Below the pieces are notes generated by a model, which was given only the letters and a program-made list of their open reading frames with translations, was not told the DNA's origin and made no database searches. The position numbers were made by a program, and so were the translations under genes. Positions 13,054-46,957 of a DNA stretch of 64,000 nucleotides are shown one piece after another. The DNA comes from a virus. Its lineage: Duplodnaviria; Caudoviricetes. Positions within the stretch are counted from its first letter, which is position 1, and each line of letters starts with the position of its first letter. Location: IMG/VR virus record IMGVR_UViG_3300032290_001086, one strand, 5' to 3'.

Positions 13054-13437
13054 ATGTACGAATTAAAAGATTATCTAAATTCTATAAATCAAACCAAAAA
13101 TAATTTAATGGATGGCGATGTAGAATATGAACGTAAATATAATTCATATGTAATAAACAAATGTTTGTCTGGGTTTTCCGACACAATCTTGTTTGCTAAT
13201 GAAATGAACTATTTCTGGCAACTTGACAAGAAGCTACAATATGATTTTTATATAAATATTATCAGACCAAAGAAAAGGTTCTCTCCTTGGTTAAAAAAGC
13301 AGAATGATAATTCATTAGAACTTATCAAACAATATTATGGATATAACGATGATAAAGCAAAATCTGCATTAAAAATACTTACTAGAGAACAACTTGAATT
13401 TATTAAATCTAAAATGAATCGTGGAGGAAAACAATGA
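13054..13437 (+). CDS. gp62: Clamp loader small subunit
   Basis: DYLNSINQTK, KKRFSPW, YYGYN; synteny. Confidence 0.9.
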   Translation: MYELKDYLNSINQTKNNLMDGDVEYERKYNSYVINKCLSGFSDTILFANEMNYFWQLDKKLQYDFYINIIRPKKRFSPWLKKQNDNSLELIKQYYGYNDDKAKSALKILTREQLEFIKSKMNRGGKQ

Positions 13438-13859
13438 ATACTAGTGACACTGAAGTAGCTTGGTCTCCTGACCAGATGGTTGAAGTGATTTTAAATGAAC
13501 CAGATGACTTTCTAAAAGTTAGAGAAACTCTTACTCGTATTGGCGTAGCATCACGCAAAGAAAAAAAGCTATATCAATCTTGTCATATTTTACATAAGCA
13601 AGGTAGATATTATATTGTACATTTTAAAGAGTTATTTGCTCTCGATGGAAAACGAGCAAATTTATTCCAGAACGATGTACAAAGAAAAAATAGAATTGCT
13701 CAACTTCTTCAAGATTGGGGCCTAGTCAAAATTGTTACTCAAGAACAAGTAGCAGACTCAGCTCCACTAAGTCAAATTAAAGTTCTTTCTTTTAAAGATA
13801 AGAATGATTGGACATTAGAATCCAAATACAATATCGGTAAGAAAAAACAACCAGAATAA
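13434..13859 (+). CDS. regA: Translational repressor RegA
   Basis: DDFLKVRETLTRIGVAS, LYQSCHILHKQGRYYIVHFKELF. Confidence 0.97.
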   Translation: MNTSDTEVAWSPDQMVEVILNEPDDFLKVRETLTRIGVASRKEKKLYQSCHILHKQGRYYIVHFKELFALDGKRANLFQNDVQRKNRIAQLLQDWGLVKIVTQEQVADSAPLSQIKVLSFKDKNDWTLESKYNIGKKKQPE

Positions 13860-13890
13860 AAAAAGGGGGTCTAAGACCCCCTTTCTTTTT
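13858..13890. terminator. Bidirectional terminator
   Basis: A-run, GGGGGTC-TAA-GACCCCC, T-run between convergent genes. Confidence 0.88.
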
Positions 13891-13972
13891 ATTTCATCGC
13901 CATTACCAACTGAGCTTGGTATAGGCGATTTTGTTTTTCAATTTGTTTGCGGATAAGATTCAACCAGTTCAT
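13889..13972 (-). CDS. 27-aa peptide MNWLNLIRKQIEKQNRLYQAQLVMAMK
   Basis: Translated by hand; ATGA overlap with the upstream DUF4278 stop; GGAGG SD. Confidence 0.7.
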   Translation of the reverse strand: MNWLNLIRKQIEKQNRLYQAQLVMAMK

Positions 13973-14127
13973 TTTGCGACCTCCTGATTTTTACAAGGAC
14001 GGTACGCAACTCCACGATAAGTATTTTGTGGATGTGCTGGAGCATGTGTTTTTGAATACCACTGACGATATTCTTCTTTAGGTGTATCAGTATTATACTT
14101 ACACCCTCTGTAGGTTGCTTGTGACAT
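13969..14127 (-). CDS. DUF4278-family small protein, 52 aa (IF17/GifB N-terminal-like)
   Basis: MSQATYRGCKY...NTYRGVAY: two YRGxxY motifs; AAGGAG SD; directly downstream of the glnA riboswitches. Confidence 0.85.
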   Translation of the reverse strand: MSQATYRGCKYNTDTPKEEYRQWYSKTHAPAHPQNTYRGVAYRPCKNQEVAK

Positions 14128-14156
14128 TAGGGGTCTCCTTAATTTTTAGGCTAAAG

Positions 14157-14255
14157 AGCGTTCCTTCAGTCGGCTTTTGCGTCGGTTTCCCGATGAACGA
14201 TCCGTTCCGAGTCGGCTTACTTCCGTTCGCTATTCGAGAATAGCGAATGAACGTA
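14157..14255 (-). ncRNA. Tandem glutamine (glnA-class) riboswitch aptamers
   Basis: Minus strand CGTTCATTCGCTATTCTCGAATAGCGAACGGAAGTAAGCCGACTCGGAACG-GAT-CGTTCATCGGGAAACCGACGCAAAAGCCGACTGAAGGAACG; CGUUC/GAACG P1 and CCGACUGAAGGAACG match the recalled glnA motif. Confidence 0.88.
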
Positions 14256-14277
14256 TTAGTATATATACAGATAAAAC

Positions 14278-14293
14278 TGTAATATTTGATACA
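14278..14293. promoter_or_regulatory. NtcA-binding box
   Basis: TGTA-ATATTTGA-TACA fits GTA-N8-TAC, centred about 30 nt upstream of the riboswitch 5' end. Confidence 0.7.
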
Positions 14294-14753: not shown

Positions 14754-15257
14754 ATGAAATTTACCACTCAATCACTAGATTCATTTTGGAACGATTACGC
14801 TCCACTCGCTGTAGGTCTGGATGAAATGTTTAACCGATTAGATGCTATGCAGCATTCGGTAAACGTAAATTATCCGCCCTACAATATCGTCAAACATGAC
14901 AATAGTAACTACACAGTTGAAGTCGCTCTTGCAGGATTTACACCAGAAGAGATTGAAGTCTTTACAGAACAAAACATTCTCACAATTGCCAGTAAAGTTG
15001 AGGAACGAGATACTACAAGACAGTATGTACACCAAGGTCTGTCAAAGCGTTCCTTCACACGTAAGATTCAACTCTCCGATGAACATAGAGTATCCTCTGT
15101 GAATTTTGAGCATGGATTATTATCTGTAGACATCGAAAGAATTATTCCAGAACATCAAAAGAAAACAACTTGGTCTATTCCTGGAGTAAAATCAGATCCT
15201 CAATTTTTGACAGAGGATAGAGATTCAAATTTCCCAGGAGAGAACACAATTAAATAA
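14754..15257 (+). CDS. hsp20: Small heat-shock protein (IbpA-like)
   Basis: NYPPYNI, EVALAGF, H.GLSKRSF, GLLSV. Confidence 0.96.
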   Translation: MKFTTQSLDSFWNDYAPLAVGLDEMFNRLDAMQHSVNVNYPPYNIVKHDNSNYTVEVALAGFTPEEIEVFTEQNILTIASKVEERDTTRQYVHQGLSKRSFTRKIQLSDEHRVSSVNFEHGLLSVDIERIIPEHQKKTTWSIPGVKSDPQFLTEDRDSNFPGENTIK

Positions 15258-15291
15258 ATAGACTTGGGAAATCCCCAAATATCGTCGGCAC

Positions 15292-15330
15292 AGACCCACC
15301 CTGGCAACTATCAGGGATTGGGTCTTTTTT
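15292..15330 (+). terminator. Terminator hairpin, possibly the 3' end of a short late RNA
   Basis: AGACCCA-CCCTG...CAGGG-TGGGTCT followed by a T-run. Confidence 0.7.
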
Positions 15331-34469: not shown

Positions 34470-34540
34470 TGGTGAATAGCTCAGTGGCAGAGCGGTCAGC
34501 GATTAACTGAATTGCGAAGGTTCGATTCCTTCTTCACCTA
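34470..34540 (+). tRNA. Aberrant tRNA-like gene (loop CGATTAA, nominal Asn-ATT, G33)
   Basis: Cloverleaf with good D and T arms, U1-U72 and G27-A43 mismatches; own promoter TTGACA-17-TACTAT at 34435-34463. Confidence 0.6.
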
Positions 34541-34659
34541 TTGGTAACACCAACTTATATCATAAGCGATTGAGTGTTATCATTTTGTGCCCAGGAAGGT
34601 GCTCACCGAGAGGTGAGTGTACCCCCCTTCTATTGGGATGTAGAGTTCTATTAATTTAA

Positions 34660-35022
34660 ATGCGTTTTATTTCAACCCTTCTTATTGCTTCAACCCTTAT
34701 TGGATTTACGCCCCAAAAAGCTGAAGCTGCCAGCGGATGTTCCCTGGCTTCACATTATGGTGTAGGTGATGGATATCACGGCCAAACCACCGCTAACGGT
34801 GAAAGATATAATGCATATGGTAAATCCGTTGCACATAGATGGCTTCCATTCGGAACTAGGTTACGTGTCACAAATCAACGAAATGGAAAGTCAGTTATCG
34901 TGCGAGTGAATGATAGGGGTCCATATGTCGGAGGACGAGACCTCGACCTGTCCTACGGGGCATTCTCTACTATTGCTTCCCCTGGACAGGGAGTGGCTAG
35001 TATCTGTTACTCACGAGTTTAA
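34660..35022 (+). CDS. rlpA: RlpA-like lytic transglycosylase with signal peptide
   Basis: ASHYG...TANGE...AHRWLPFGT...VRVNDRGPY...DLSYGAF. Confidence 0.92.
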   Translation: MRFISTLLIASTLIGFTPQKAEAASGCSLASHYGVGDGYHGQTTANGERYNAYGKSVAHRWLPFGTRLRVTNQRNGKSVIVRVNDRGPYVGGRDLDLSYGAFSTIASPGQGVASICYSRV

Positions 35023-35060
35023 CAGATAAATAATGGGGAGATTTGATTCTCCCCTTCCTC

Positions 35061-35357
35061 ATGAAAAATAATGGATTGCCAGATAACCAGAAAGATGTCG
35101 TTGACATTCTTGGCAAAGCAGGATATTTAAAAGCAGAGAATGATAAAATTAAAGTATCATTGGACTCTGCGAATACATTAAACATTCAACCAAAAGGAAC
35201 TCCATTTGGAGCAAAGGTAAGAGTAGAATCCGATGGGTCTATAACTCCAACTCTTACTTTTGACACAAAGAAGCTTAGAGATAAATCAAACTATGTTCCT
35301 CCTAAAGATTTAGTTGATGAAGCTCTAGAAAATTTTTGGGAGAATGACAATGTTTAA
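35061..35357 (+). CDS. Hypothetical protein
   Basis: ORF after ATAAATA late promoter. Confidence 0.65.
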   Translation: MKNNGLPDNQKDVVDILGKAGYLKAENDKIKVSLDSANTLNIQPKGTPFGAKVRVESDGSITPTLTFDTKKLRDKSNYVPPKDLVDEALENFWENDNV

Positions 35358-35793
35358 ACTCTTTGAAATTAAAGAAGGTAAGTTTAAAGTACTTCCAATA
35401 TTAAACCCTAAATATATCAAGGGATTCGTTGTTGTTTCTATCATCGCTATTATCATTGCTGGTCTTGCTGGACAATTCAAATTAGATGAGAAACAACTTT
35501 GGAAAATCTATACAGCACTAATTCAAAAATTAGGTCTGGAACAAAATCTTCCAGACATACCAGACCATCAAAAACAACTTGATGCTAAGGTAGAATTAGA
35601 AGTTGATAAAGCAATCTCAGATTATGAACGCTTGACAGGAGACTATGGGTATGTTAAGATACCAGCTCCACGGTACTCAGAAACCCCAGTTGACACTGAT
35701 GTGTGTTATACTGATGAGTGTCGAGCATTAGGAGGAGAAATCCGACTCTGTGCTCCATGGGTCCCAGACTGCCCCTTGACAAAGCAAGAATAG
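35344..35793 (+). CDS. Membrane-anchored hypothetical protein with Cys-rich C-terminus
   Basis: TM helix; CYTDECRALGGEIRLCAPW. Confidence 0.7.
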   Translation: MTMFKLFEIKEGKFKVLPILNPKYIKGFVVVSIIAIIIAGLAGQFKLDEKQLWKIYTALIQKLGLEQNLPDIPDHQKQLDAKVELEVDKAISDYERLTGDYGYVKIPAPRYSETPVDTDVCYTDECRALGGEIRLCAPWVPDCPLTKQE

Positions 35794-35816
35794 TCTGCTA
35801 TACTTAATACACAAAT

Positions 35817-35890
35817 GACTCAGTAGCTCAGTTGGATAGAGCATCTGCCTTCTAAGCAGTTGGTCGGGGGTTCAAGTCCCTCCTGAGTCG
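35817..35890 (+). tRNA. tRNA-Arg(TCT)
   Basis: Cloverleaf, loop CTTCTAA; promoter TTGACA-17-TATACT upstream. Confidence 0.95.
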
Positions 35891-35920
35891 TGACAACTGA
35901 ATAAATTAAGGCATGAAACA

Positions 35921-36178
35921 ATGTACAAAATCAGATGCAAATGTTGCAATTCCAATCTTGAAGTAGCAACTCCAAACAGGGGACAATCTTGTAAATGTCC
36001 CAACGAAACTTACATAAGGCTTGACAACAACGGATTACCTGTTATAATAGCTCAAGACATGAGCCAAGTAGAAATGGTAACAGGATTTACTAAACCAAAA
36101 CAAAAGCAATCAAAAATGATGGAACAATTGAACACTCCAAAAAGACGAATAAGAAGACTAGATTACGAAGTTCGTTAA
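35921..36178 (+). CDS. Small Cys-rich hypothetical protein
   Basis: CxCC...CxC; RRLDYEVR end. Confidence 0.7.
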   Translation: MYKIRCKCCNSNLEVATPNRGQSCKCPNETYIRLDNNGLPVIIAQDMSQVEMVTGFTKPKQKQSKMMEQLNTPKRRIRRLDYEVR

Positions 36179-36186
36179 TTTAGTCT

Positions 36187-36257
36187 GGGAGCATAGCTTA
36201 ATGGTAGAGCGGCCTGCTTATAACGGGTTGGTCTGGGTTCAATTCCCAGTGTTCCTA
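36187..36257 (+). tRNA. tRNA-Ile(TAT)
   Basis: GCCTG-CTTATAA-CGGGT anticodon arm. Confidence 0.9.
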
Positions 36258-36280
36258 TTAGGAATCGACGGGTTCCTAAA

Positions 36281-36462
36281 GAATGTGGCAGAACAATCCT
36301 TGTGGTTACTCACGGGATAACGCAATAGATTAGAGGTGGTGCTCGCTGTATCGTTGAGAAATCAAAGGTATAGAACTTCCAACCAAGAAGAATCTAGGTA
36401 CTTGGAAATACGGTTGTCAGTGTAACCTTCCAGGTTGTGGGTATGACAGATTCCCACCATTC
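36281..36462 (+). ncRNA. manA-like structured RNA
   Basis: GAATG/CATTC closing stem, GGTGGTGCTCGCTG core, terminal GTGGG..CCCAC; between tRNAs; match recalled, not searched. Confidence 0.65.
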
Positions 36463-36466
36463 ACCA

Positions 36467-36540
36467 CGGGATGTAGCTCAGTTTGGTAGAGCACTCGCTT
36501 TGGGAGCGAGGGGCCGTAGGTTCAAATCCTATCATCCCGA
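36467..36540 (+). tRNA. tRNA-Pro(TGG)
   Basis: CTCGC-TTTGGGA-GCGAG. Confidence 0.95.
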
Positions 36541-36722
36541 TTACCGTTTACAGAACTTCCCTTCTGACGGTAAATACCACTAGTATATTATTCAACATAG
36601 ACCACAATCGCCGTTGGATAGTTTATTAGTTTGACGTTGAACTGCAAAGTCAGCATACGGATAGAGGTTAGGTCCCTGAATACTACTGGAAATATTCGGG
36701 GGTATTCACACCTAATCCATCT

Positions 36723-36796
36723 GGGGAATTAGCTCAGTTGGTAGTAGCACTTGCTTTGCAAGCAAGATGTCATCGGTTCGAGTCCGATATTCTCCA
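36723..36796 (+). tRNA. tRNA-Ala(TGC)
   Basis: CTTGC-TTTGCAA-GCAAG; G3-U70. Confidence 0.95.
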
Positions 36797-36815
36797 TTCC
36801 CTTTATATTATTACT

Positions 36816-37049
36816 ATGGGAGACTCGGTTAAGTATCAAATTGAAAAATCCAGAGAAGCACTTCGTTCTGCACTTGAACTAGGTGCAACACATGAAGATG
36901 TATGGACTCTTTCTCAGATTGCATCTGCATTGAGTACTGTTGAAGCACTACTTGCTTCACAATCACAGAAAAATTACACATTAAAAAATCCATATTACAA
37001 TGGATATGTAAGTAGTGGTATTTCTGATGATGTTATTACATTTAAATAA
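36816..37049 (+). CDS. Hypothetical protein (true start ATG 36816)
   Basis: The 5' extension in the ORF track overlaps tRNA-Ala. Confidence 0.6.
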   Translation: MGDSVKYQIEKSREALRSALELGATHEDVWTLSQIASALSTVEALLASQSQKNYTLKNPYYNGYVSSGISDDVITFK

Positions 37050-37103
37050 ATAACATCAATACTCCTCAAGCCTATCTATAGAAGCTCAAACAGAGGAGTC
37101 ACT

Positions 37104-37175
37104 GCGGAGTTAGTTCAGCGGTAGAACGCTATCCTTCCAAGTTAGATGTCGTCGGTTCGATTCCGATACTCCGCT
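37104..37175 (+). tRNA. tRNA-Gly(TCC)
   Basis: GCGGAGT acceptor, loop CTTCCAA. Confidence 0.95.
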
Positions 37176-37196
37176 TCCCTCATATATGAGGTTATT

Positions 37197-37355
37197 ATGT
37201 CACTTATTTCTCAAACAGACCGTCAGATGGCTATTGAAGCTCTTGAATATTATGTTCAAAGGCTTAAAGATGATAACTGCACTCAAGCATCCATCAATGC
37301 ATTTCAAACACTTCTGAATTGGATTGAACTTGAACATTACAAACATGAACATTAA
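37197..37355 (+). CDS. Small hypothetical protein
   Basis: GAGG SD; MSLISQTDRQMAIEALEYY. Confidence 0.7.
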   Translation: MSLISQTDRQMAIEALEYYVQRLKDDNCTQASINAFQTLLNWIELEHYKHEH

Positions 37356-37521
37356 ACTTTGGTATTGTAAGCATATGAATCAGTGGAGGTGGACTCTAAC
37401 TGATGACTCTAGGCCAATTATTAAACAAGAATCTGGTCAACGTCCAAATCTTCGTGATGCAATGAATGATGTTGCAACTACTGTTGAATACTTATTAAAC
37501 ATTCATCCTGAAGAAATGTAA
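37345..37521 (+). CDS. Small hypothetical protein
   Basis: MNIKLWYCKHMNQWRWTL. Confidence 0.7.
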   Translation: MNIKLWYCKHMNQWRWTLTDDSRPIIKQESGQRPNLRDAMNDVATTVEYLLNIHPEEM

Positions 37522-37531
37522 TATTAATTAT

Positions 37532-37603
37532 CCTTGGGTAGTCTAGTGGCCAGGACACGCAGACAATGCAGTTGGAGTTTGGGTTCGATTCCCGACCTAA
37601 GGT
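37532..37603 (+). ncRNA. tRNA-like RNA with truncated anticodon arm
   Basis: Acceptor CCTTGGG/CCTAAGG, intact D arm, T arm with TTCGATT loop; anticodon arm only GCA-GACAA-TGC. Confidence 0.65.
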
Positions 37604-37742
37604 ACTAGTGGCACTGGAAAGATAAACCAGAATGCTGTAGTAAAGGGTGCAACAAGGAACGTTACATTAAACAAAGAATCCCCTCGGCCACATCGTAGAA
37701 AAAGCGAAACTGGCTTCATCATAAGTTGCTAAGTCGCTTAAC

Positions 37743-37859
37743 GTAGGTGGACATTCTTGCCCTTAAAATCGTAGGTGCCAAAACCGCTCTTCATCCCTAG
37801 TATTCTGTGGGTGAGTGAAAGTAAAGAGTGATAACATAGGTAAAGTTATCTCCACCTAC
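37743..37859 (+). ncRNA. Unassigned multibranched structured RNA
   Basis: 9-bp closing helix GTAGGTGGA/TCCACCTAC plus internal hairpins; abuts tRNA-Asn. Confidence 0.5.
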
Positions 37860-37864
37860 CACAA

Positions 37865-37936
37865 TGGCGTGTAGCATAACGGTAATGCAAACGACTGTTA
37901 ATCGTAGGACTGTAGGTTCGATTCCTACCACGCCAG
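37865..37936 (+). tRNA. tRNA-Asn(GTT)
   Basis: Loop CTGTTAA; TGGCGTG/CACGCCA acceptor. Confidence 0.92.
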
Positions 37937-37970
37937 TTGCCGATAAATATGAGTATCGGTGAATACTAAA

Positions 37971-38237
37971 ATGAAATACAAAATTTCTTCAATGTACTGT
38001 TTTTATCAGGACGAAATTGTAGACATGTATTTCATCAATAATGTGCCATTTACATTTGAAGATATTCCTCAGATAATGCAGGATGACCCATATATTCAAA
38101 TGGAAGCGGCTAATAATCCTGAATATTCTCCAGAGGATTTATACAAAACATCTTTTTATCTAATAGATGAAGAATGTCACCCATGTCTATTTCCAGTAGA
38201 CTTGGAGAATCCTGAGGATATGCCACCAGTAGATTAG
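37971..38237 (+). CDS. Hypothetical protein
   Basis: ORF between tRNAs; ATAAATA upstream. Confidence 0.7.
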   Translation: MKYKISSMYCFYQDEIVDMYFINNVPFTFEDIPQIMQDDPYIQMEAANNPEYSPEDLYKTSFYLIDEECHPCLFPVDLENPEDMPPVD

Positions 38238-38238
38238 T

Positions 38239-38310
38239 GCCTCTTTAGCTCAGTGGTAGAGCACTCGCCTTGTAAGCGAGCGGTCATCAGTTCAAATCTG
38301 ATAGGGGGCT
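38239..38310 (+). tRNA. tRNA-Thr(TGT)
   Basis: CTCGC-CTTGTAA-GCGAG. Confidence 0.95.
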
Positions 38311-39535: not shown

Positions 39536-39574
39536 CTTAAAAAATACCCTGGTGGAGTCAATATGACCCAAATA

Positions 39575-39678
39575 GTCCTCGTCGGATTGGACATAAAATA
39601 TGCCGACTGGTGCGGATGTGGAGGATACTCCCGCCGAGTTTCCAATTTTCTCGTAATCAAAATTGGTGGCGAGCCTGC
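39575..39678 (+). ncRNA. wcaG RNA motif
   Basis: TGGTGCGG...CCCGCCGAGTTTCC...TGGCGAGCCTG with two UGGYG elements and pseudoknot CCAATTTT/AAAATTGG. Confidence 0.75.
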
Positions 39679-39788
39679 AAATGGGGGTTGACAATCTCCA
39701 ACAAATGCCCTATACTGGGTGAGTGAAACCGAACTATGTTACGGTTTCCAACAATATAAATAAAATCTGTAGTTAATCATTTAAAATT

Positions 39789-43073: not shown

Positions 43074-44875
43074 ATGACTGCTACCATCGCTCAACGCAAT
43101 GGAAGTAATACATGGGAACAGTTCTGTGAGTGGGTAACATCTACCAACAACCGTCTGTATGTCGGTTGGTTTGGAACTCTTATGATTCCTACCCTTCTCG
43201 CTGCTACTATCTGTTTCATCGTTGCTTTCATTGCTGCTCCTCCCGTAGACATACTGCTTTAATCTGTGTCCTTCATCCGTAAGGATGATGTTAAAACTGG
43301 GTGAATTGCTGGAAACCGAAAGGCAATCAGCAGCCAAGTCCAAAGTACACTTTGGAAAGGTTCAGAGACTACCTGAGGGGTTTAGTCCCCTTAATAACAG
43401 GCTAGAGTGCCCAGCCCCTTTAATCTAATTAAAGGGTGAAGATATAGTCCAAATCTCACAGTTGACTTTTATTCGCACTTGTTGTATAAATATAACAGTA
43501 GGTGCGAAAACAAAATGCTCGATTTAACGGAATCACAAATTACTTGGATTGCGGGAATTTTAGAAGGTGAAGGATACTTTGGAATAGATAATCGTTCTAA
43601 AGACCGTTATGACTCTTCTAAAGCACCACCAGCACCATATATTCGTCTTGTTATGACTGATGAAGATGTGGTTGCTAAACTAAGTAATTTTGTAGACAAA
43701 CCCTATTTTGTACCCAATAGAAAAACACTCAAAGGAAAACCAGTCTATGTCCTTCATATAGGAAATAGAGAAAAAGTTCTTTTCATTTTGGAAAAAATAC
43801 TTCCCCATATGGGAAATAGAAGAAGTGAAAGAATTAAAGAATGTATTTCTTATATTAATGAGTGGAAAGAGTGGGTAGAAAATGGTGGGAGAGTAGAAAA
43901 CGCAAAACGAGCAAATCAAATAGGTCAACTGAAACGGTCTAAGTCGCAAGATATGACTGTTTTACTGGGATAAGAGACGGGATTCGTGAACCAGTTGCTG
44001 GTTCTCTAATGTACGGAAACAACATCATTTCTGGTGCTGTTGTTCCTTCTAGCAATGCTATCGGTCTGCACTTCTATCCCATCTGGGAAGCCAACTCGCT
44101 TGACGAATGGCTATATAATGGTGGACCATTCCAATTGGTCGTATTCCACTTTCTAATTGGTATCTATGCCTACATGGGTCGTGAATGGGAACTTTCTTAC
44201 CGTCTTGGTATGCGTCCCTGGATTTGCGTTGCTTACTCTGCTCCTGTTGCTGCTGCTTCTGCGGTCTTCCTTGTATATCCTTTCGGTCAAGGTTCCTTCT
44301 CTGATGCAATGCCTCTTGGAATCTCAGGAACGTTTAACTACATGCTCGTCTTCCAAGCAGAACACAACATTCTTATGCATCCGTTCCATATGCTTGGGGT
44401 TGCTGGGGTATTTGGTGGCTCTCTCTTTAGTGCTATGCACGGAAGTCTGGTTACGAGTAGCCTTGTTCGTGAAACCACAGAAGTAGAATCTCAGAACTAC
44501 GGCTACAAGTTCGGTCAAGAAGAAGAGACTTATAACATCGTTGCTGCTCACGGTTATTTTGGTCGCCTTATTTTCCAATATGCTTCCTTTAATAACTCAC
44601 GTTCGCTGCACTTCTTCCTTGCTGCTTGGCCTGTAGTTGGTATCTGGTTTACTGCTCTTGGTGTTAGCACCATGGCATTCAACCTCAATGGTTTCAACTT
44701 TAACCAGTCGATTACCGATAGTCAGAATCGTGTCATCCCCACCTGGGCAGACATTCTGAATCGTGGTGGTCTTGGAATGGAAGTGATGCATGAGCGAAAC
44801 GCTCACAACTTCCCCCTCGACCTGGCTGCTGCTGAGATGACTCCTGTTGCTCTTACTGCACCAGCCATCGGCTGA
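43074..44875 (+). CDS. psbA: Photosystem II D1, two exons 43074-43252 and 43975-44875 (1080 nt spliced)
   Basis: Splicing restores APPVDI-DGIREPV; full D1 through HNFPLDLA; Glu130 (high-light form). Confidence 0.97.
43253..43974 (+). mobile_element. Group I intron in psbA codon 60 (after nt 179)
   Basis: Exon GACAU pairs with IGS GUGUC (U-G wobble); P AATTGCTGGAAA, Q AATCAGCAG, R TCAGAGACTA, S AAGATATAGTCC; terminal G. Confidence 0.93.
43515..43973 (+). CDS. Intron-encoded LAGLIDADG homing endonuclease
   Basis: [12 protein letters not shown] motif, MTDEDVV, ILPHMG.RR; TATAAATA at 43485. Confidence 0.85.
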
Positions 44876-46875: not shown

Positions 46876-46957
46876 GGGTAGGTGTCCGAGTGGTTAATGG
46901 AGGTGGACTGTAAATCCACTGGCTCTGCCTACGGGGGTTCAAATCCCTCCCTGCCCA
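46876..46957 (+). tRNA. tRNA-Tyr(GTA)
   Basis: GTGGA-CTGTAAA-TCCAC, long variable arm. Confidence 0.95.

Follow-up and report, generated by a model that had tools for sequence, protein, structure and literature searches.

We analyzed a window of 64,000 nucleotides (nt) from the IMG/VR virus record IMGVR_UViG_3300032290_001086 (Duplodnaviria; Caudoviricetes), which carries on its minus strand, at 13858–14293, a glutamine riboswitch followed by two small open reading frames (ORFs), here called ORF1 and ORF2. An original prediction made from the sequence alone had described this region as a phage nitrogen-sensing cassette composed of an NtcA box, a tandem riboswitch of the glnA type, a DUF4278 gene, a coupled peptide and a terminator. 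All of these elements were found, and their reading as a circuit was largely supported by comparative evidence. The region is probably a host-derived small-protein cassette that responds to nitrogen status, with a promoter bearing an NtcA-type box, a nested double aptamer and split, coupled proteins. We give about even chances to a more specific reading, in which the widespread "tandem" glutamine riboswitches of cyanophages would each be one nested sensor with two sites, formed by P3 strand exchange (an intramolecular domain-swapped dimer). Such a sensor would respond cooperatively to glutamine through one platform and control a split, permuted copy of a host nitrogen-regulated protein; in most relatives, the inner aptamer contains an ORF whose stop codon lies in the core. 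The regulatory logic was already known from the hosts, as were glnA RNAs from cyanophages; the new elements are the conservation of the box throughout the cassettes, the assignment of ORF2 and, most importantly, the evidence for a nested double aptamer with exchanged P3.

Riboswitches are thought to be rare in phages. Tandem glutamine riboswitches have so far been treated as independent units, and the covariation described below points to a strand exchange that nests one aptamer in the other, which would be a different way to build a two-site RNA sensor. Cyanophages appear to have copied the whole regulatory logic of the host, with 2-oxoglutarate sensed via NtcA and glutamine via RNA, and this is relevant to the ways in which phages may sense and shift nitrogen status in the most abundant phototrophs of the sea.

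An Infernal search, which had been proposed as a check of the aptamers, matched the Rfam Glutamine family (RF01739) at 14155–14255 with 41.4 bits against a gathering score of 35. The cmscan match joined the 5′ half of the first unit (unit A) to the 3′ half of the second (unit B) across a 46-nt insert, and neither unit was aligned alone. Two units do lie between 14253 and 14159, as had been predicted, but they do not appear to be two independent aptamers, P3 being formed between them. Unit A has CGGAAGUA and only CG where the consensus has GAAG, reading ...CCGACUCGGAACG without GAA; unit B has GAAG (or AAAG) and carries CGCAAA where the consensus has CGGAAGUA, without AGUA. These complementary defects were seen in every locus, always in the order A (AGUA without GAA) and then B (the reverse), which is why cmscan aligned a composite and not either unit. 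The lack of GAA in the first aptamer had been noticed in the original prediction and taken as a hint of cooperative or asymmetric sensing; the lack itself was confirmed, but it does not mark the first aptamer as defective and instead forms one side of a complementary pattern in keeping with a nested fold. According to the account of the Ren et al. structure in Huang et al. 2019 (PMC6698751), loop E in riboswitches of this class is made up of AGUA facing GAA, and the glutamine pocket consists of P1 CGUUC/GAACG and the ACG of J2/3. The P1 strands and the J2/3 ACG are present in both the outer and the inner unit and are invariant across relatives, and loop E (AGUA at 14218–14221, GAA at 14165–14167) is present only in the composite outer unit.

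Both units carry an 8-nt element, usually AGCCGACU, located at 14210–14217 (element A) and 14168–14175 (element B) on the minus strand, which Rfam reads as a 2-bp P3 hairpin. In comparisons of relatives, covariation (U-A, G-C or A-U) was seen between the final base of element A and the initial base of element B. In 31 distinct short-form leaders, the corresponding pair of alignment columns (47 with 92) held UA in 15, GC in 13 and AU in 3, with no unpaired case, and the pairs of the local hairpin were broken in 16 of the 31. A second scan that left the element unconstrained gave 144 distinct sequences with 21 A/B combinations, which were read as an antiparallel duplex A(1–8):B(8–1). Position a8-b1 was paired in 142 of the 144 sequences (UA, GC, AU, UG), and a1-b8 (AU, GC, GU, CG) and a5-b4 (GC, GU, AU) were each paired in 143, while a2-b7 and a7-b2 were near-invariant G-C pairs and a3-b6 and a6-b3 were conserved C·A mismatches, occasionally replaced by Watson-Crick pairs. 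None of 2000 shuffles matched the observed A/B pairing. Because the A/B changes occurred on several sequence backgrounds, they do not reflect a single inherited event. This covariation shows the two AGCCGACU elements to pair as one long-range P3.

With P3 formed between the units, the AGUA located 5′ of element A faces the GAA located 3′ of element B in the consensus geometry, and pairing of the first CGUUC with the last GAACG is required to complete the three-way junction next to it. The best reading of these data seems to be a nested architecture, in which an outer consensus glnA-type aptamer encloses an inner permuted one. The long-range P3 would set the AGUA of unit A beside the GAA of unit B as loop E of one outer aptamer, whose P1 would be formed by CGUUC at 14253–14249 and GAACG at 14163–14159 (paired by both cmscan and RNAalifold; invariant, and thus without covariation). 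On the minus strand, this outer unit would comprise the 9-bp P2a hairpin with loop CUCG (14226–14247; minimum-energy fold), whose columns covary in relatives, the J2/3 CGGAAGUA with the AGUA strand (14218–14225), which equals the Rfam consensus and occurs in the first unit only in all loci, and GAAG followed by the 3′ strand of P1 (14159–14167; cmscan). The remainder, CG-GAACG-GAU-CGUUC-A-P2b-ACGCAAA, would make up a further junction, circularly permuted and located at the opposite end of P3, with its P1 capped by the 3-nt GAU linker and both loop-E strands absent. This inner P1 hairpin, GAACG-GAU-CGUUC (14195–14207), takes the 3′ strand from unit A and the 5′ strand from unit B and was given by the single-sequence fold and by RNAalifold; its strands are invariant, so that its support comes from energy and topology, and the linker is 3 nt long in nearly all loci. 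The P2b hairpin UCGG-GAAA-CCGA (14182–14193; fold and RNAalifold) has columns that covary, and the inner J2/3 CGCAAA (14176–14181) lacks AGUA, as do all second units.

In the same account of the known structure (PMC6698751), the ligand sits in the groove of P1, together with the G of J2/3, and P3 points away from the binding site, so both junctions could bind glutamine. Binding would stabilize the outer P1 and turn on translation of ORF1, as in the host switches. The putative expression platform lies at 14135–14158, where CUCUUUA (14152–14158) pairs with the Shine-Dalgarno region UAAGGAG (14135–14141) in the minimum-energy fold.

The nested arrangement can be compared with known two-site RNAs. 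Like the tandem glycine riboswitch, the phage leader has two homologous, physically coupled junctions and one expression platform; the glycine aptamers are adjacent and meet through tertiary contacts, whereas the phage units would share a Watson-Crick helix by strand exchange, with one unit nested. Catalogued tandem glutamine riboswitches (Weinberg 2010; Sherlock et al. 2022) belong to the same RNA family and have the same doublet arrangement, but are described as independent, pseudo-cooperative units (PMC2864571, PMC9481103). The glnA annotation in phage S-CREM1 (99 nt, 44 bits) spans both units, like the match in the window. The A-B junction looks phage-specific by its distribution. Searched with a pattern of 24 specified bases, it was found in only 5 contigs of a collection of 185,579 prokaryote species, of which one is a 189-kb contig listed as viral in IMG/VR and the rest are short contigs from metagenome bins; all five matches seem to lie on phage DNA. 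A 16-nt junction pattern was too unspecific in this collection and gave chance matches, its lone Synechococcus match lying inside a coding region.

Further features of the aptamer region were seen in relatives. Most of them have a conserved ORF of 49–69 amino acids in the P2 loop of the inner aptamer; the window is without it and has P2b (14182–14193) there instead. It was seen at L003:1620–1772, at L005:1366–1533, in L001 at about 1579–1734 and in 91 IMG/VR loci. The embedded ORF follows the pattern ME.L.LTCLQAQ ... C.(I/W)DAKAD, with its AUG 3–5 nt after CGUUCA, and its differences by codon position (5354 third, 3117 first, 1405 second) indicate coding; it matched phrog_504 weakly. Its stop codon, U(G/A)A, spans the end of element B and the loop-E strand in 85 of the 91 loci, so that the last residues are encoded by the aptamer core. 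In addition, a long hairpin of the UUCGCUAUUCGCAAAUAGCGAA type forms the outer-unit P2 in the window (14226–14247) and in L097 and the inner-unit P2 in many relatives (L004, L011 and others), the outer and inner P2 positions thus appearing interchangeable.

An NtcA-type palindrome, TGTA-N8-TACA, was located by pattern match at 14278–14293 on the minus strand (core GTA-N8-TAC at 14279–14292). The first-aptamer CGUUC (14253) lies 24 nt downstream of the end of the box and 32.5 nt downstream of its centre, consistent with the perfect box predicted at about 30 nt. By pattern counts against expectation, a single box in the window had no significance over chance (TGTAN8TACA, 2 vs. 1.13 expected; GTAN8TAC, 16 vs. 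10.5), and its significance therefore has to come from conservation in homologous loci. Among the 91 homologous phage cassettes with a recognizable first P1 strand and sufficient upstream sequence, a perfect GTA-N8-TAC was present within 90 nt upstream in 69, compared with about 3% expected. The same motif was found upstream in all five isolate phages with a homologous cassette, despite their different neighbourhoods. Conservation of the box across cyanophages, which had been named as a check, was thus observed. The two-layer arrangement that had been proposed is kept in these 69 phage loci and in 17 of 18 host loci, and the comparisons support the combination of an NtcA-type box with a glutamine riboswitch as a conserved cassette feature in phages and in homologous host genes.

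The distance from the end of TAC to CGUUC was 44–48 nt in 53 loci (long form) and 24–25 nt in 8 loci, with the window among the latter (short form). Long-form loci have a near-consensus TTGACT-N17-TATAAT between the box and the aptamer, the box lying about 15 nt upstream of it; relative to this form, the short form is without about 20 bp bearing the −10. A sigma-70 scan upstream of the window cassette gave no canonical promoter and no −35 hexamer, whose place is occupied by the box. A putative −10 region (TATATA / TATACT; 14258–14267, minus strand) was recognized by sequence and aligns with the conserved TTGACTATATA segment of long-form loci. The centre of the box is estimated to lie near −50.5 in the long form and near −31.5 in the window, if transcription starts just 5′ of the aptamer.

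The position of NtcA relative to the transcription start sets activation (−41.5) or repression. Known repressing sites are centred at −30.5 in gifA and −7.5 in gifB (PMC6316151), and the −30 site that the original prediction had assigned to gifB is therefore that of gifA. We infer that the control in the phage is repression by host NtcA. Transcription would start from a promoter without a −35 hexamer, with the palindrome in its place, and host NtcA, active at high 2-oxoglutarate, would repress the cassette, as for gifA, gifB and the host homologues. It is rather unlikely that the box activates instead, so that the nitrogen-stress regulator of the host would drive the cassette at high 2-oxoglutarate. 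Sullivan et al. 2010 found 1–16 NtcA sites per cyanomyovirus genome and proposed that they promote phage genes (PMC3037559); the window promoter also resembles NtcA-activated promoters in having no −35 hexamer, and in the long form the box stands upstream of a complete promoter. However, the distance from the box to the likely −10 is 11–15 nt, vs. about 22 nt in class II NtcA activation, and in the host homologues the box covers either the start site or the −10 region, a repressing position (PMC6212724). Activation at high 2-oxoglutarate would also oppose the glutamine ON switch, and the gene would almost never be expressed.

Several other features were noted upstream of the aptamers. In long-form promoters (e.g., L044 and L011), a conserved inverted repeat, GTGTTA-GTAT-TAACAC or GGTC-TATAAT-GACC, has the −10 hexamer in its loop. 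The long-form TTGACT is followed by TATATA or AAATA, resembling the late promoter motif of T4 type, and two promoters or an operator are possible. In about 30 IMG/VR loci (e.g., L007, L019, L022 and L035), the first unit is preceded by the 3′ end of a conserved ORF (...WELMDIVKNDDVV...LLELRKD...); no CGUUC strand or NtcA box was visible in these variant loci, and the first unit seems to overlap coding sequence.

ORF1 (13969–14127, minus strand) encodes a protein of 52 amino acids with a Shine-Dalgarno sequence, AAGGAG, 7 nt upstream. It has the two predicted YRGxxY motifs, as TYRGCKY and TYRGVAY, and Y6, R7, G8 and Y11 were invariant in the alignment. The Pfam DUF4278 profile (PF14105) matched ORF1 with E = 3e-4 and 21.5 bits, the cut-off being 25.3 bits, and matched 15 of 17 phage ORF1 homologues at E ≤ 0.01 (best 1.7e-7). 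The predicted DUF4278 assignment holds for these homologues but not, by score, for the window ORF1, which we read as a diverged, shortened member of the family. ORF1 also matched phrog_5049 (E = 3.2e-10) and ORF2 matched phrog_545 (E = 3.4e-7), both families being without known function; an NCBIfam search gave no match for either ORF.

ORF2 (13889–13972, minus strand) encodes a basic helix peptide of 27 amino acids. It overlaps ORF1 by ATGA and has its own Shine-Dalgarno sequence, AGGAGG, within the 3′ end of ORF1 (13980–13985, minus strand), 7 nt upstream of ORF2. An (A/G)TGA start over the ORF1 stop (−4 overlap), followed by an ORF of 27–38 amino acids, was present in 57 of 116 loci, and GGAGG is kept 6–9 nt before the overlap in relatives. 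In each of three ORF2 subfamilies, the differences were concentrated at third codon positions (e.g., 880 vs. 397 and 188) and synonymous codon changes exceeded non-synonymous ones. The translationally coupled peptide of the original prediction was thus borne out: judged by its substitutions and overlap, ORF2 is a real, coupled gene, whose translation would be coupled to that of ORF1 by means of the ATGA overlap and a Shine-Dalgarno sequence of its own. The family follows the pattern N-[WF]-L-x-x-I-[KR]...K...A-Q-L-x-M-A (alignment A1). An in-frame fusion that places the helix after the first YRG motif occurs in S-CREM1 and in about 19 protein clusters; a homologue search with the fused form of 48 amino acids gave only 19 near-identical phage proteins. 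In a few loci, the helix stands alone directly behind the riboswitch.

Variants of the two-gene arrangement were also observed. In L085, L108, L119 and L007, a second DUF4278 ORF is chained behind the first with a −4 overlap, ahead of the helix ORF. In a marine MA(K/Q)VTYRG subfamily (L075, L081, L101 and L118), a hydrophobic peptide of about 28 amino acids (...IIYAE..LL..), probably membrane-embedded, takes the place of the basic helix behind ORF1.

A profile of alignment A1 was searched against 1.84 billion representative proteins and matched 72 clusters, most of 27–43 amino acids; one match of 127 amino acids contains the helix-YRG unit twice. In cyanobacterial genomes, matches were found in 3 of 301 sampled across the phylum and in 24 of 151 Cyanobiaceae. 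In 18 of the 23 hit loci scanned, a glutamine-II aptamer (Downstream-peptide, RF01704) above the gathering score lay directly upstream, ending about 15 nt before the ORF. The host ORFs begin with the helix (N-x-L-x-x-I-R/K ... A-Q-L) and many continue with ...MAKAYRG...YRG...; ORF2 was 65% identical over its first 23 amino acids to one host ORF behind a glutamine-II riboswitch. By this homology, ORF2 is the phage counterpart of the conserved picocyanobacterial "downstream peptide". This previously unannotated ORF thereby offers a second, independent handle on the function of a family that has long been unexplained. Since ORF2 is homologous to the N-terminal helix of a host chain made of helix and YRG, the phage pair appears to be split and order-swapped, with ORF1 (YRG, DUF4278) and ORF2 (basic helix) as the two modules of the host protein.

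The regulation of these host genes also corresponds to that of the phage. A perfect GTA-N8-TAC was present in 17 of 18 picocyanobacterial loci (L252–L254, L285–L304), 7 or 17–20 nt before the glutamine-II aptamer, which goes beyond the one MED4 case that Klähn et al. had pointed out (PMC6212724). The host boxes are mostly GTAGCAACCGCTAC, and the box of phage locus L005 has the same sequence as that of host locus L298. The Downstream-peptide genes (e.g., PMM1846/Yfr6; Klähn et al. 2018) and the phage cassette thus have in common an NtcA box, a glutamine riboswitch and small helix and YRG proteins. They differ in that the host genes have a single glutamine-II pseudoknot aptamer, whereas the phage has glnA-type units as a nested pair, and in that the host proteins have the helix and then YRG in one chain, whereas the phage has YRG (ORF1) and then the helix (ORF2), split.

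A role of the cassette in tuning host nitrogen assimilation during infection, as had been suggested, is inferred from its regulation alone. The original prediction had further proposed that the two small proteins act as a split factor modulating glutamine synthetase (GS). The split itself is supported, because the helix and YRG form one chain in hosts and in phages of the S-CREM1 type; the link to GS is not, and GS as the target of ORF1 and ORF2 is possible but unsupported by the comparisons. The strict form of this proposal, in which ORF1 and ORF2 are a split IF17-like inactivating factor that shuts down the host enzyme, is unlikely. In its favour, IF17 has DUF4278 as its N-terminal part, the name IF17-like has been given to host DUF4278 proteins encoded behind glutamine riboswitches (PMC6212724, PMC6316151), ORF2 shares with IF7 a basic, helical character, and control of this kind would be apt for a factor produced when nitrogen is abundant. 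Control of gifB and gifA in Synechocystis likewise has two layers, with 2-oxoglutarate sensed via NtcA, which represses, and glutamine via a glnA-type aptamer on gifB, whose product IF17 shares the DUF4278 N-terminus; gifB, however, has a single aptamer, and IF17 has a GS-inactivating IF7-like C-terminus that the phage proteins are without. In IF17, inactivation resides in this C-terminus, whereas it does not require the DUF4278 N-terminus, which aids stability (PMC6316151). ORF1 stops behind the second of its YRG motifs and has no IF7-like domain. IF17 homologues were extracted from 30 cyanobacterial loci, and hhalign gave no similarity between the ORF2 family and the IF7-like C-termini of 8 of them (probability 0.3%, E = 0.2), nor between the ORF2 family and a second class of C-terminal extension of cyanobacterial DUF4278 proteins (probability 0.4%). 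ORF2 as an IF7-like peptide was rejected on these two comparisons. Furthermore, the matches of the ORF2 family in the 301 cyanobacterial genomes were only three picocyanobacterial loci, and inactivation of the IF type is reported to be absent from marine picocyanobacteria (PMC6316151).

Many cyanobacterial DUF4278 proteins of 120–140 amino acids have no IF7-like C-terminus and carry instead a helix pair (...H..N....L..R...A...GD..L...LE.E), as in L260, L264, L266, L268, L270, L272, L274 and L277–L282. Because so many family members have a different conserved C-terminus, the equation of DUF4278 with IF17 is not general. Under the proposed control by NtcA and glutamine, the cassette is predicted to be expressed when glutamine is high and 2-oxoglutarate low. 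Speculatively, if the products lowered nitrogen assimilation, both layers would switch the cassette off, giving a negative feedback.

Several observations weigh against the nested, NtcA-repressed cassette proposed here. The window ORF1 scores below the Pfam DUF4278 gathering score, and the estimated box position near −50.5 in most relatives is not a classical repressor position. The P3 duplex retains its two C·A mismatches. The pairing of CUCUUUA with UAAGGAG, considered as a conserved anti-Shine-Dalgarno switch, was not kept in the phages DSL-LC02 and S-PM2 or in the marine subfamily and was rejected as such, so that the ON/OFF direction had to be taken from the host switches. The literature on tandem glutamine riboswitches that was covered gave no description of P3 strand exchange or of a split loop E, Ames & Breaker 2011 lying outside this coverage, and the nested architecture may already have been described there. 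Finally, the four P1 strands are invariant, and covariation therefore cannot separate nested units from kissing units side by side; the choice of nesting rests on junction geometry, covariance-model score and energy. RNAalifold and the single-sequence fold both gave the nested topology of outer and inner P1, although RNAalifold placed the long-range helix in a different register, which the covariation does not support.

A rival reading takes the leader as an ordinary tandem, with two self-contained glutamine-I aptamers side by side, each with its own P1, P2 and P3, acting pseudo-cooperatively. Such tandems are reported to be common (157 doublets) and are classed as pseudo-cooperative (PMC9481103; PMC2864571), single units were alignable by cmscan in relatives with 33–36 bits, and the P1 strands permit either pairing. 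Even so, we consider an ordinary tandem quite improbable. Neither unit is structurally complete alone, no unit having both loop-E strands, and the local P3 hairpin of the glutamine-I class is replaced by a P3 between the units. The closing pairs of the local P3 were unpaired in 40 of the 144 sequences, with compensation never within a unit and only across units, and the inter-unit covariation extends to three positions; the composite alignment also scored higher, at 41.4 bits. The nested double aptamer accordingly remains the reading we prefer.

That the palindrome is not an NtcA site at all but is bound by another CRP-family or phage factor, or is an element of promoter architecture, is very improbable: GTA-N8-TAC is short and no more frequent in the window than by chance, and its distance to the promoter varies between the short and long forms, but the conserved positions are exactly those of the NtcA consensus, the same motif precedes the host homologues, and a 14-mer, GTATCGGTTGCTAC, is identical in phage locus L005 and host locus L298.

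The source of the window is a new T4-like cyanomyovirus, whose gp43 DNA polymerase gene has at most 72% DNA identity to any phage in the GenBank collection. The cassette is flanked on one side by regA (13434–13859, plus strand; Pfam Translat_reg, E = 2e-45), which is convergent with it, and on the other by a conserved phage gene (14297–14617, minus strand; phrog_507), followed by hsp20 and then gp43. The predicted bidirectional terminator was recovered in a sequence scan as an intrinsic terminator-like hairpin at 13858–13888, common to the cassette and regA. The closest relative of the cassette is in Synechococcus phage DSL-LC03 (86% identity over 69% of the cassette length). The neighbourhoods of the cassette differ among the isolate phages DSL-LC03, DSL-LC02, S-PM2, S-SRM01 and S-CREM1, indicating that the cassette moves as a unit between genomic locations. 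The IMG/VR sample used for the comparisons comprised 120 loci, which were retrieved with the aptamer junction as the search pattern.

A candidate small RNA at 15253–15330, whose GUCGGC could pair with the GCCGAC of both elements, was rejected: GUCGGC occurs 5 times in the window vs. 4.0 expected, and the motif was not present downstream of hsp20 in the syntenic S-CREM1. Other RNAs in the window are a manA RNA (36258–36467, 107.7 bits), a wcaG RNA (39573–39680, 51.1 bits), a group I intron (43243–43472, 85.5 bits) and ten tRNA genes, nine of them clustered at 34470–38310 and the tenth at 46876–46957.

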